Virus record (IMG/VR): IMGVR_UViG_2529293216_000013
DNA: 35,441 nt
Direction: 5' to 3' (one strand)
Source of the DNA: a virus
Taxonomy: Duplodnaviria; Heunggongvirae; Uroviricota; Caudoviricetes
A program made the position numbers and the translations under genes. Below the pieces are notes generated by a model. It worked only from the letters and a program-made list of their open reading frames with translations, made no database searches and had not been told where the DNA came from. Below, in pieces: positions 1,083 through 3,631 of this stretch. Position 1 is the first letter of the stretch; each line of letters begins with the position of its first letter.

Positions 1083-1108
1083 GAAATAAAAAGGCCACGC
1101 AACGTGGC
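1083..1108 (-). terminator. Rho-independent terminator (minus strand) immediately upstream of holin
   Basis: Minus-strand GGCCACG-ttg-CGTGGCC stem followed by TTTTTATTT. Confidence 0.55.
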
Positions 1109-1176
1109 CACCAGAATTATTTCCCCACCAGTTCACTTACCTCTTTCACCGTCTGATTAAACCGCTCTGACTCAAG

Positions 1177-1491
1177 TTAAACACCTAACGCCCGACGCCC
1201 CAGCGCCATTGCTGCTTTTATTGTGGAACCGAATCCCATAAAGAAATCAGCAACCAGATCACCAGGTCGACTACTGGCATTGATTATTTGCCTGAGCATA
1301 TCCGCCGGTTTCTCGCACGGATGTTTACCCGGGTAGAACTGAACGGGCTTATGCGTCCTGACATCGGTATAAGGCACGGAGACTGATACGGAGAAATAGC
1401 GCCGGTGAGATTTAAACTCATCCAGCAATTCAGAAGATTTGCAATTCAGTGAATCATGAGATACCACCAACTGGTGGTAGGATTGTCTCAA
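1177..1491 (-). pseudogene. Internal fragment of an N6/N4 DNA methyltransferase (both ends truncated)
   Basis: 104 aa ORF with C-terminal AdoMet-binding-type motif HPCEKPADMLRQIINASSRPGDLVADFFMGFGST; no N-terminal catalytic DPPY-type motif; ORF ends ...RRALGV where full-length enzymes continue; abrupt AT-rich junction upstream. Confidence 0.5.
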
Positions 1492-1662
1492 CTAGTGAGC
1501 TTTATACATTTAAGTGCGATGCACAGATAATAACCACGCCAATGGAATATCACACACAAAATTGATAGAACACTAACAATAAGCCACAAAATAATTCACA
1601 ATTTATTTTTACAGTGGATAAGTAGCAAAGTAGTGAATGTGAATAACGGCTAACTAAGATGA

Positions 1663-1690
1663 AACAAAAAGCCCCACAATATGTGGGGCT
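1663..1690 (-). terminator. Rho-independent terminator (minus strand)
   Basis: Minus-strand GCCCCACA-tat-TGTGGGGC stem followed by TTTTTGTTT. Confidence 0.6.
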
Positions 1691-1748
1691 CCTTCGCGAT
1701 TTATAGTAAAATAATCGATTCTCTAGCTGAAAAAATCTTTAAAAATTA

Positions 1749-1934
1749 TCAGCAATACGCAAGTTTTTTACCGTCATCCGGTACTAGTTTGATCACTACA
1801 CCAGGATTCTTACGCTCTAACATCTGAGTTTGACTCCATGTAATACCAAAGGTTTCCATTGGAGATGCATTGCCAGCAAAGAGTTCGGCGACGACTTTAG
1901 CTGCCTCAATCTCTATCTGCTCATGATGTTTCAT
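1749..1934 (-). CDS. Hypothetical small protein (about 61 aa)
   Basis: ORF MKHHEQIEIEAAKVVAELFAGNASPMETFGITWSQTQMLERKNPGVVIKLVPDDGKKLAYC; between two terminators in the Q-to-lysis moron locus; no recognisable motif. Confidence 0.3.
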   Translation of the reverse strand: MKHHEQIEIEAAKVVAELFAGNASPMETFGITWSQTQMLERKNPGVVIKLVPDDGKKLAYC

Positions 1935-2125
1935 AAAAATCCCCTTGTTCAGCACTAAGCTGTAGTTGCTTCTTTGAAGCATAAAGGCAACAAAGTTTGT
2001 TACCTGAAGATGTATAAAGTAAAGCGTAGTACATTTTGTGTGTGCTTTGTGTGGATCCAGATTGCATCAACTAAAAGAGGTTTTCAATACTTTTGTAATG
2101 ATTCTGGAGAAATTAAGAATCTAAC

Positions 2126-2668
2126 TCACACTGATTGGTTAGGTAAAACGCTCCTAAGCACCATTGCGCAACCACCTCGTTCGTAATCAGCAATGTACTC
2201 AAAACCACTTTCAGTATAGTATCTTATTGCCCCATCAACTGGACTAACTAAAGCTATCGAATCAATAGATTCACCCTGAAGGTTCAGAAATCGTGCATAT
2301 GCAGAGAAGCAATCCAAAACGATACCAAGCATCTGATGGTCTAGGTCTTCATGTGCATCATTACGTTTTTCCATCCAGCAAATATGCACCGCATTTTTCG
2401 GCTTACAGTAACACCCAAATGCAAATCCAATAGGCTCCCCACGATAATAAACAACTAGTTTTATCGGGTGTTCTTCCATCATATCCATAAACACTCGCGA
2501 CTTTAGTCCGGGATCCCACCGCAGTTTATTGTTAGCCTTGAGGAACTCCATATCTTTTAGTACCAGCTCGTCGGCATATACGAGCCCTAACGACTTATGA
2601 GGGAAGCGCCCTTTTAAATACTCTGCAACATTTTTAAATACTGCTGTTTGGAAGGCTTGAAACATCAT
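2126..2668 (-). CDS. Putative acyltransferase with GNAT-like C-terminal signature (180 aa), moron cargo
   Basis: AT-rich ORF; C-terminal VSPVDGAIRYYTESGFEY resembles the GNAT terminal strand/helix signature; located between the post-Q terminator and the lysis genes. Confidence 0.35.
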   Translation of the reverse strand: MMFQAFQTAVFKNVAEYLKGRFPHKSLGLVYADELVLKDMEFLKANNKLRWDPGLKSRVFMDMMEEHPIKLVVYYRGEPIGFAFGCYCKPKNAVHICWMEKRNDAHEDLDHQMLGIVLDCFSAYARFLNLQGESIDSIALVSPVDGAIRYYTESGFEYIADYERGGCAMVLRSVLPNQSV

Positions 2669-2745
2669 GTCGATCCAGACGAGACGAAAGTTTAAATTCT
2701 ACCTACTCGCCGAATACCATTTCAATGCCACACATCTAAAATTCC

Positions 2746-2780
2746 GAAAAAAAACCCGCACATCAGCGGGTTTTCTACTT
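2746..2780. terminator. Strong bidirectional rho-independent terminator about 100 nt downstream of the Q-like gene (candidate tR')
   Basis: A8 tract, stem ACCCGC-acatca-GCGGGT, then T-rich tract; on the minus strand the hairpin is followed by T8. Confidence 0.65.
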
Positions 2781-2878
2781 TTTATTAAAGCCGGACACAC
2801 AATGCCTATCATTGAGAAAATATTATCCATTTTTTTGAAAAATGCAAGCATCATGTCGCCATTTTCGTCGAAAATCAT

Positions 2879-3631
2879 TCATCTCGTCACTTTCCTCAAT
2901 TGTGTCTCAGCATACGCTTCTTCCTGCCAGCACTTTGTAACCAGTTTATCAATGACATCTGCATATCCTTTGTACCACTGATAATCCGTCAGGTCTGGTA
3001 CCAGCTTCTGGACATGAAGCCGCGCCAGTGTGGTTGGTAAACGGCTAAACCGGTTTCCATTGCAACGCCCACAAACCTTATAAACAGGCGTGCCATGAAG
3101 CCTGGTTCTTTTTTCATCCAGGACAATACCTTTACCCTTACACCCTCTGCACGCTGTGCTGACTTCTCCCTTACCATGACAATGCTGACACAGTTCCTTC
3201 ACCCACTCTTCCTTGATAACAGATTCCCCGCTTCTGGAGTGTTTCACCACCTCGCGCAATACATCATGAAATCCAGTACCAGCACAATGCTCACAGCGAG
3301 CCTTACTTGCCGCAGACCTGGAATAATCAGCAAAGGCAAAATTCACAAGGTAAGGAATGATCTGTAGCCGGGTTTCTTCACTCAATTTGTTCAATGTCGG
3401 GTTATCCAGTGCCATCGCGTAATTGAGCAGACCTTCAATCGCAAACTGAGGATCCTGAACACCAACTTTTGCCAGGAATAAGGCAAACCCAAGCGGTGCT
3501 TTCGACTGCACCATCCCCTGCGCAGCCATTACATCCGTAATTGTTAAACCACCAGAGCCTGTCGCCGGTGCGTCATCGCTCAATTTTGGAGATTTTGGGG
3601 AGTAATATTTCGGTAAGGCTTCAAAGTTCAT
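2879..3631 (-). CDS. Putative late antiterminator Q-like protein (250 aa) with four CxxCxGxG zinc-finger repeats
   Basis: Position: downstream of DUF968 gene, upstream of terminator and lysis genes, as for quuQ in the Qin prophage; repeats CEHCAGTG, CQHCHGKG, CRGCKGKG, CGRCNGNR. Confidence 0.5.
   Translation of the reverse strand: MNFEALPKYYSPKSPKLSDDAPATGSGGLTITDVMAAQGMVQSKAPLGFALFLAKVGVQDPQFAIEGLLNYAMALDNPTLNKLSEETRLQIIPYLVNFAFADYSRSAASKARCEHCAGTGFHDVLREVVKHSRSGESVIKEEWVKELCQHCHGKGEVSTACRGCKGKGIVLDEKRTRLHGTPVYKVCGRCNGNRFSRLPTTLARLHVQKLVPDLTDYQWYKGYADVIDKLVTKCWQEEAYAETQLRKVTR

Follow-up and report, generated by a model that had tools for sequence, protein, structure and literature searches.

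A predicted autonomous two-gene moron in the late-control segment of an SfV-like Escherichia coli O157:H7 prophage

Is cargo that lies behind the late promoter pR' of a lambdoid prophage expressed only when the Q antiterminator acts at that promoter? The DNA behind pR' is known as a place where morons insert (PMC4104026), and the question arises for a 35,441-nucleotide stretch of Caudoviricetes DNA (IMG/VR record IMGVR_UViG_2529293216_000013; the whole stretch is called the window below), in which two cargo genes lie between a Q gene and the lysis genes. An initial annotation of the window had placed three terminators, a Q-like gene, two cargo open reading frames (ORFs), a methylase fragment and a holin gene here, and all of them were found on the minus strand, with positions that agree to within a few bases with those it gave. 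It had also likened the site to the one where Shiga toxin (Stx) phages carry stx, and this is indeed the known moron insertion site at pR' (PMC4104026, PMC6266700, PMC3851460). Its further proposal, that everything in the segment including the cargo depends on Q as stx does, needs revision. The region has the late-gene control layout typical of SfV-like lambdoid prophages, here one from E. coli O157:H7, and we read it, with a probability of about 0.72, as three units: a lambda-type Q switch, an autonomous moron with dual expression (from its own promoter P1 without Q, and by Q read-through), and a methylase remnant with terminator 3.

The elements of the cargo cassette are as follows.

2696-2725, minus strand: predicted cargo promoter P1, TTGAAA-18-TAGAAT, a 10/12 consensus match whose -10 ends 30 nt 5' of the start codon
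2126-2665, minus strand: gene for the GNAT-fold protein (phrog_11949), 179 amino acids from the second ATG (a 180-amino-acid ORF reaches to 2668)
2059-2087, minus strand: promoter-like element P2, TTGAAA-17-(TG)CAATCT, just past the GNAT stop codon, conserved in 6 otherwise divergent spacers
1985-2005, minus strand: weak spacer hairpin in the 5' leader of the small gene, -9.2 kcal/mol, z -3.2
1749-1934, minus strand: gene for the 61-amino-acid partner protein (phrog_11292)
1666-1694, minus strand: terminator 2, a 13-bp stem with a T-run, -20.2 kcal/mol, z -4.4

The z-scores of RNA folding, here and below, are against dinucleotide shuffles. Judged from its sequence, the cargo is an autonomous two-gene moron in which a predicted promoter, the GNAT-fold gene, the 61-amino-acid gene and a predicted terminator follow one another. 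P1 is the best among only three promoter-like sites in 5 kb, and its position recurs elsewhere: in 12 of the 13 loci compared, which come from several genera, the -10 of the best sigma70-like site upstream of the GNAT gene ends 27-33 nt ahead of the start codon, and the spacer is mostly 18 bp long. In loci L016 and L017 the hexamers of P1 are kept and the 18-bp spacer between them is scrambled. An intrinsic terminator is present within about 80 nt past the small gene at every one of the 13 loci, with a different sequence at each. Both cargo genes are under strong purifying selection across genera, as indicated by a nonsynonymous divergence (dN) of 0.095 for the GNAT gene against L016, with synonymous divergence (dS) saturated, and a dN of 0.065-0.08 for the 61-amino-acid gene, with dS saturated or 1.9.

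The cassette travels as a pair and is mobile. The GNAT-fold and small genes always occur together, with the partner downstream and on the same strand at every locus with enough sequence; in L023/24 a divergent 54-amino-acid protein ending ...KTAC is the positional equivalent of the partner. The cassette lies behind a lambda-type Q in the window, in L016 and in Cronobacter L017, and behind an unrelated PF06530-type Q in Proteus L009-11, L019 and Photorhabdus cinerea L026. In L019 it is 5' of an intact methylase gene and in L026 it is 3' of one, and in Pragia L008 it stands between the lysis genes and the terminase gene. Other copies are found in tail operons, between the chaperone and tape-measure genes (L018, L006) or between K and I (Erwinia L029). 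In L023/24 the cassette is on the strand opposite to Q and the holin gene and adjoins umuDC, and two copies are in non-phage islands (Limnobaculum L020, Photorhabdus australis L027). Strict Q-dependence of the cargo is therefore unsupported, because a conserved promoter-like site precedes it and because it also occurs on the opposite strand, in tail operons and outside phages. We suggest that lysogens probably express the cargo in the absence of Q and that Q read-through raises its expression further, in the manner of stx1 rather than stx2. The proposal of the initial annotation is thus not supported for the cargo, which has its own predicted P1 (12/13 loci), its own terminator (13/13 loci) and Q-independent contexts, and is supported for the lysis genes and for a late burst of cargo expression, with no promoter-like site from 1666 to 1040.

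Within the cassette, the small gene begins 147-237 nt downstream of the GNAT gene. At 8 of the 13 loci this spacer contains a hairpin with a T-run after P2 and before the small gene; that of the window is weak, and those at 7 of the 12 others are clear intrinsic terminators (strong ones in Pragia, Limnobaculum, Photorhabdus, Erwinia, L018 and L006). The spacer resembles a small RNA gene or a miniature leader with promoter and terminator, and it may serve as a second promoter or as a leader of the attenuator type. RNAalifold over seven spacers gave no consensus structure, so leader hairpins are given per locus only. As a separate observation, a promoter-like/hairpin layout of the spacer was noted for L008, L018, L020, L023, L026, L027 and L029 besides the window. 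L023, whose cassette runs against the direction of late transcription, shows a strong TTGACC-17-TAGAAT at the P2 position and no terminator there.

How the cargo came to lie here can be read from its borders.

1479-1665, minus strand: AT-rich (33% GC) tail of the inserted segment, without similarity to the DNA downstream of other cassettes
1177-1491, minus strand: ORF of a methylase C-terminal fragment (N6/N4 DNA methylase, homologue of SfV orf48; homologous part 1177-1478), Pfam N6_N4_Mtase E 7e-18
1088-1109, minus strand: terminator 3, GGCCACG-TTG-CGTGGCC followed by T5, -12.5 kcal/mol, z -2.7

The backbone of this region is shared with Shigella phage SfV and coliphages mEp460 and Ayreon and consists of a DUF968 gene, Q, pR'-tR', a variable part, a methylase gene, a terminator and S. 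Homology of the window to these three phages runs through Q, pR' and terminator 1 and breaks off where the T-run ends, near 2745; with SfV and mEp460 it restarts at 1478 within the methylase gene and extends past terminator 3 into S. The 1267 bp of foreign DNA between these points (1479-2745) stand in place of SfV orf47 and about two-thirds, the 5' end, of the methylase gene, which in SfV is full-length (orf48, 1053 bp) and lies between terminators 1 and 3. What is left of the methylase covers N6_N4_Mtase profile positions 156-209 of 221 and is labelled 'missing N-terminus' by PGAP. It has later acquired a GAA-to-TAA nonsense codon at 1179-1177, which is absent in strain AR216.2b. The AT-rich character that the initial annotation had given to the acyltransferase-like gene holds for the cargo, with a GC content of 39.2% over 1492-2745, compared with 48-53% for Q, the methylase remnant, S and R. 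The cargo is absent from SfV, mEp460 and Ayreon despite the shared flanks.

Within E. coli, the cargo was found in 98 of 5426 genomes, all at least 99% identical across it, and 1184 genomes match some part of 1000-2900. Four carrier loci were inspected and have an identical gene order around the cargo with partly different lysis modules. The identity in 98 genomes and the same gene order argue for one insertion event that was spread by recombination. AR216.2b has the same cargo junction but carries an EssD/RrrD lysis cassette instead of S/R, and this difference indicates that the cargo moved between lysis modules by recombination.

The unit upstream of the cargo is the Q switch.

2879-3631, minus strand: Q antiterminator gene, 250 amino acids, lambda-Q family (Pfam Antiterm E 8e-53; phrog_127; PDB 7ubm)
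2820-2847, minus strand: predicted pR' (by homology), with -35 TTGCAT (2847-2842), a 16-bp spacer and -10 TAATAT (2825-2820)
2805-2813, minus strand: predicted +1 and sigma70-dependent pause element AATGAT-AGG, aligned with AACGAT-GGG in lambda and SfV
2747-2774, minus strand: terminator 1 = tR', AAAACCCGC-TGATGT-GCGGGTTTT plus four more T, conserved in SfV, mEp460 and Ayreon

The Q-like gene named by the initial annotation encodes, to judge by homology, a true lambda-Q homologue: lambda Q (PDB 7ubm) matches it with E 1.8e-37 in two aligned blocks, residues 1-120 and 160-250, and it shares 98% identity with the Q protein of SfV, a viable phage. Relative to lambda Q, the Q proteins of the window and SfV have a CxxC-rich insertion of ~43 residues (Q residues ~120-160; about 3152-3272 in the window), and this extra segment may be a second zinc ribbon. 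A weak match of the insertion to a DnaJ CXXCXGXG-type domain was also seen. Downstream of the Q stop codon, an ungapped alignment sets TTGACT-17-TAAATT-TGACTC-AACGAT-GGG of lambda against TTGCAT-17-TAAGAT-TTTTCC-AACGAT-GGG of SfV and TTGCAT-16-TAATAT-TTTCTC-AATGAT-AGG of the window; the aligned region includes CAACGATGGG in SfV and CAATGATAGG in the window, and pR' is conserved in SfV, mEp460 and Ayreon. This element fits the sigma70 consensus at 7 of 12 positions only, so pR' was named by homology and not by promoter scan. Transcription would start near 2813, with a -10-like pause element at +1 to +6 that is followed by G-rich bases; the role of a sigma70-dependent pause element is established in lambda and is described in PMC6266700. 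The initial annotation had pointed to 2780-2880 for pR' and qut, and the homology-based pR' at 2847-2820 falls in this interval, with the Q-binding element expected in its -35/-10 spacer. The sequence of that spacer is unlike that of lambda, and the DNA specificity of Q is therefore probably different.

The candidate tR' that had been noted about 100 nt past Q corresponds to terminator 1, the predicted tR' of a pR' that can be aligned with that of lambda. Its hairpin begins 105 nt past the end of the Q gene, folding of the 76-nt region gives -23.5 kcal/mol (z -3.2), and hairpin plus U8 are at +40 to +67 from the predicted pR' start, so that without Q a short RNA of ~67 nt (2813-2747) is predicted.

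Some smaller observations concern this promoter region. The A-run at 2831-2837 is A7 in the window and in 12 identical O157:H7 genomes, and A8, giving a 17-bp spacer, in strain 127, AR216.2b, S1-JOR-02-A and phage 689R6; the spacer is also 17 bp in SfV, mEp460 and Ayreon. The A7 allele is inside the expected Q-binding element; it might make pR' less active or hinder the loading of Q, or it might be an error in assembling the homopolymer. A 59-amino-acid ORF at 2699-2878 on the minus strand spans pR', tR' and P1, and Ayreon is annotated with another small ORF there; because it overlaps a conserved promoter and terminator, it is most likely spurious. The predicted pR'-tR' RNA (2747-2813, minus strand) contains the AU-rich single-stranded stretch AAUAAAAAGUAGAAAA directly before the terminator hairpin. 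Such a layout is typical of Hfq-binding small RNAs (sRNAs), and the RNA has analogues in StxS and lambda 6S RNA (PMC7547250). A search of Rfam at a permissive E-value gave only sub-threshold matches over this RNA and terminator 3 (AgrB, isrK, leaders and fstAT), which were rejected as chance.

Taken together, terminators 1-3 are the top three among 12 terminator-like sites in 1-5000, where shuffles give 5.9 +/- 2.6. Terminators 1 and 3 have counterparts at matching positions in SfV, mEp460 and Ayreon, although the loop of terminator 3 is altered in mEp460, and both carry a terminator annotation in SfV and Ayreon. As the homology to these phages breaks at the cargo, the terminators of SfV and Ayreon flank a full-length methylase gene and terminator 3 follows the methylase gene in all three phages, terminator 3 is ancestral and terminator 2 arrived with the cargo. 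On this comparison the three differ in origin (tR', the cargo's own terminator and the ancestral terminator of the methylase unit) and do not form one Q-controlled block.

Beyond terminator 3 the lysis cassette begins.

705-1040, minus strand: holin S (lambda family), first gene of the lysis cassette, Pfam Phage_holin_3_1
225-701, minus strand: endolysin R (lambda R-like, GH24), from ORF calling and annotation

All the relevant genes are on the minus strand, in the transcription order KilA-N gene, DUF968/HNH gene, Q, cargo region, holin S, endolysin R and Rz, and the reading frames of Q, S, R and Rz are all intact. No promoter-like site was found in the scan of the minus strand from terminator 2 to S (1666-1040). 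With the lysis genes behind all three terminators and no promoter in that interval, lysis and a late burst of cargo expression must depend on Q-modified polymerase.

These elements suggest how the segment would work. In the lysogen, pR' would fire constitutively, and polymerase would pause at AATGAT (+1 to +6) and, without Q, stop at tR'. The cassette would be transcribed from P1, and perhaps from P2, up to terminator 2, and transcripts that leak through would be halted at terminator 3; since no other promoter-like site faces S, the holin gene would stay silent. Upon induction, Q would load onto the paused pR' complex, and the modified polymerase would pass terminators 1-3 and express the cargo together with S, R and Rz. 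Terminators 2 and 3 would then most plausibly act as insulators that keep Q-independent transcription of the moron, and formerly of the methylase unit, off the holin gene.

What the cargo proteins do is approached here through fold and conservation. The description 'acyltransferase-like' holds at the level of the predicted fold: the AlphaFold2 (AF2) model of the larger protein (pLDDT 87, pTM 0.85) has the full GNAT topology with an extra N-terminal helix, and GNAT folds rank top in three structure libraries. The protein is acidic (isoelectric point, pI, 5.95), and its sequence identity to structures of the GNAT superfamily, such as RimI, Naa50 and NatD and the GNAT toxins TacT and AtaT, is 5-19%. 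Residues E100 (in strand beta4), Y74, G85 and G155 are invariant in the wider family. Searches of Pfam and NCBIfam gave no match for either cargo protein or for 10 distant relatives of the GNAT-fold protein, and the PADLOC-DB 2.0 defence models gave none at E<=1 for either cargo protein. In PHROGs both fall only in families of unknown function, a PDB sequence search with the GNAT-fold protein returned chance matches only, and a literature search for GNAT morons found nothing relevant.

The partner protein has 54-64 amino acids, is predicted to be helical at low confidence (AF2 pLDDT 63) and carries the motif SPMExFGxxW...MLER. Every homologue has a cysteine in its C-terminal tail, as the last or second-last residue or no more than 7 residues from the end; the tails end in AYC, ACC, ACG, LCC, ACGGIR, GCLQHAR or TAC, and the cysteine region of the window lies at 1749-1757. 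This cysteine is retained even where the companion GNAT-fold protein is only 21% identical, and it is possibly a modification site or an active site. We propose an acyltransferase-like enzyme that works with or on its small partner.

The three-unit reading has to be set against other explanations of the segment. The closest is that all genes between Q and S are transcribed solely from pR' after antitermination at three terminators, as stx2 is. The cargo does lie on the late strand directly behind pR'-tR', Q-modified polymerase has to cross it to reach S, as no promoter-like site separates terminator 2 from S, and most copies of the cassette are co-oriented with late operons. A promoter position kept ~30 nt upstream of the GNAT gene in 12/13 loci is not expected of such a gene, however, nor are cassettes opposite to the Q/holin strand (L023/24) or in non-phage islands (L020, L027), and a terminator of its own would be superfluous for a purely late-operon gene; we consider this explanation unlikely. 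Several points nevertheless count against the three-unit reading itself. Every promoter discussed here is a consensus or homology prediction. Elsewhere P1 scores only modestly (7-10, where the background mean is 7.2), so that the argument for P1 rests on its conserved position and not on its strength. The -10 hexamer of P2 (CAATCT) is poor, the spacer hairpin of the window is weak, and pR' has, besides its low consensus match, a spacer of 16 bp compared with 17 bp in relatives. The insulator role of terminators 2 and 3 is our inference alone. That shortened pR' spacer, together with a methylase gene that is truncated and interrupted by a nonsense codon, could also be taken as signs of decaying junk, that is, a dead insertion in a defective prophage whose ORFs and 'terminators' are functionless. 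We regard this as highly improbable, as both cargo ORFs are intact and evolve across genera under strong purifying selection, the genes for Q, S, R and Rz are undamaged, and the same segment is present in the phage genome record vB_EcoM-689R6.

For the function of the cargo, two proposals were weighed. One is a GNAT toxin-antitoxin system of the TacT/AtaT/KacT kind, in which the enzyme would be a toxin that acetylates aminoacyl-tRNA and the small protein its antitoxin, for prophage stabilisation or abortive infection. The GNAT fold and the small companion recall such systems, in which an antitoxin of the RHH/DUF1778 type lies upstream or overlaps; here, by contrast, the small gene is downstream, 147-237 nt away with hairpins between, and its product has no Pfam match and helices of low confidence. 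The pI of 5.95 of the GNAT-fold protein adds to the reasons for rating a toxin-antitoxin system quite unlikely. The other proposal, which we hold only tentatively and think doubtful as a whole, is an undescribed two-component moron system for lysogenic conversion or anti-phage activity, in which the enzyme would acylate or be controlled by the small protein and the spacer hairpin would make expression of the partner conditional on read-through, switching between lysogeny and Q-driven lysis. The beta4-alpha3 loop of the GNAT-fold protein, RNDAHED (R102-N-D-A-H-E), has no Gly where R/Q-x-x-G-x-G/A is canonical and is not conserved in distant members. CoA contacts at this loop are mostly made via the backbone, so CoA may still be bound. 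As canonical motif A is lacking and no Pfam GNAT family matches, acyltransferase activity stays a prediction.

The three-unit reading places the window among well-described systems. As in the late module of lambda (Q, pR', qut, tR', 6S RNA), Q is homologous, the promoter, -10 and +1 to +9 pause element align without gaps, and a terminator lies downstream; lambda, too, shows a further terminator-like hairpin some 120 nt upstream of S, GGCAGGAGG...CCTCCTGCC-GTTTT. Unlike lambda, the window has the ~43-residue insertion in Q, a -35 of TTGCAT, a different spacer, a predicted short RNA of about 67 nt where that of lambda has 194 nt, and coding cargo between Q and S. In mEp460 and Ayreon a different moron (gp51) with its own terminator directly follows tR', and the cargo of the window has no similarity to mEp460 gp51. 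A DNA likeness of the start of the window's GNAT gene to mEp460 gp51 was set aside, since it involves no protein homology.

Classical morons, of which lambda bor and lom and HK97 gp15 are examples, are said by Juhala et al. in 2000 to have their own promoter and terminator. The cassette resembles them in its order of predicted promoter, genes and terminator, its deviant GC content and its presence or absence among close relatives, and its homologues also use classical moron slots (the Q-to-S interval, the position after Rz, and the gap that separates the tail chaperone gene from the tape-measure gene). Unlike them, it has two genes with a long, structured spacer between them, and may have a second promoter.

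In SfIV, a low-GC moron with flanking transcription signals lies between Q and the lysis genes (PMC3851460). Stx prophages (933W/Sp5 with stx2, Sp15/H-19B with stx1) likewise have cargo between pR'-tR' and the lysis cassette, and share with the window the predicted late co-transcription upon induction and a short pR'-tR' RNA, there StxS (PMC7547250, PMC6266700, PMC4104026). In stx1 prophages, Pstx1 serves stx1 alongside pR', whose transcripts constitutively end at tR' as a short RNA (PMC7547250); the predicted cargo-specific promoter besides pR' is thus a likeness to stx1. Unlike Stx prophages, the window has no toxin gene, no tRNA genes and, by Rfam, no convergent sRNAs of the AsxR/AgvB type, and its cargo has its own terminator. 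The Q associated with StxS has 144 amino acids and belongs to a different family from that of the window, whose short RNA is unrelated in sequence.

The layout is therefore ordinary and the architecture already in the literature, and the Q/pR'/tR' switch in SfV-like prophages is confirmed as far as homology goes. What changes is that the three terminators are traced to three origins and that the cargo is probably expressed in the lysogen and not strictly Q-dependent. The cargo is the part that deserves bench work, being a rare and strongly conserved family that moves between classic moron slots of unrelated temperate phages; genes that behave in this way often prove to be exclusion, defence or host-fitness factors. 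The family of the GNAT-fold protein counts 28 clusters in 5.8 billion proteins and 36 representatives in 1.84 billion, and occurs in 5 of 185,579 species-representative genomes. Its named members are all Enterobacterales, and the gene is in only one phage record. The cargo itself is carried by a subset of E. coli O157:H7 isolates from cattle and humans.

One further copy of the cassette has a neighbour of a similar kind. In Pragia fontium L008 (6444-8037), a Pyocin_S-domain gene and a small ORF come next after the cassette, ahead of the terminase gene, and make up a second cargo unit in the same prophage.

As to the source of the DNA, window positions 1-11315 are collinear with and 100% identical to a prophage of E. 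coli O157:H7 FRIK2455, FRIK2533, FRIK944 and others, and the Q-to-holin segment is 99.8% identical to the deposited phage record vB_EcoM-689R6. Past ~11.3 kb (about 11315-35441) the collinearity with the FRIK reference strains is lost. The idea that the whole window is the thrW prophage of FRIK944 was rejected, as the window has no tRNA gene and collinearity ends near 11.3 kb. Positions 17684-25000 match a different region of FRIK944 in inverted orientation, which encodes an integrase, a LEM-3-like GIY-YIG protein, an AraC regulator, an AAA ATPase and an 'ABC-three component system protein', and looks like a defence island.

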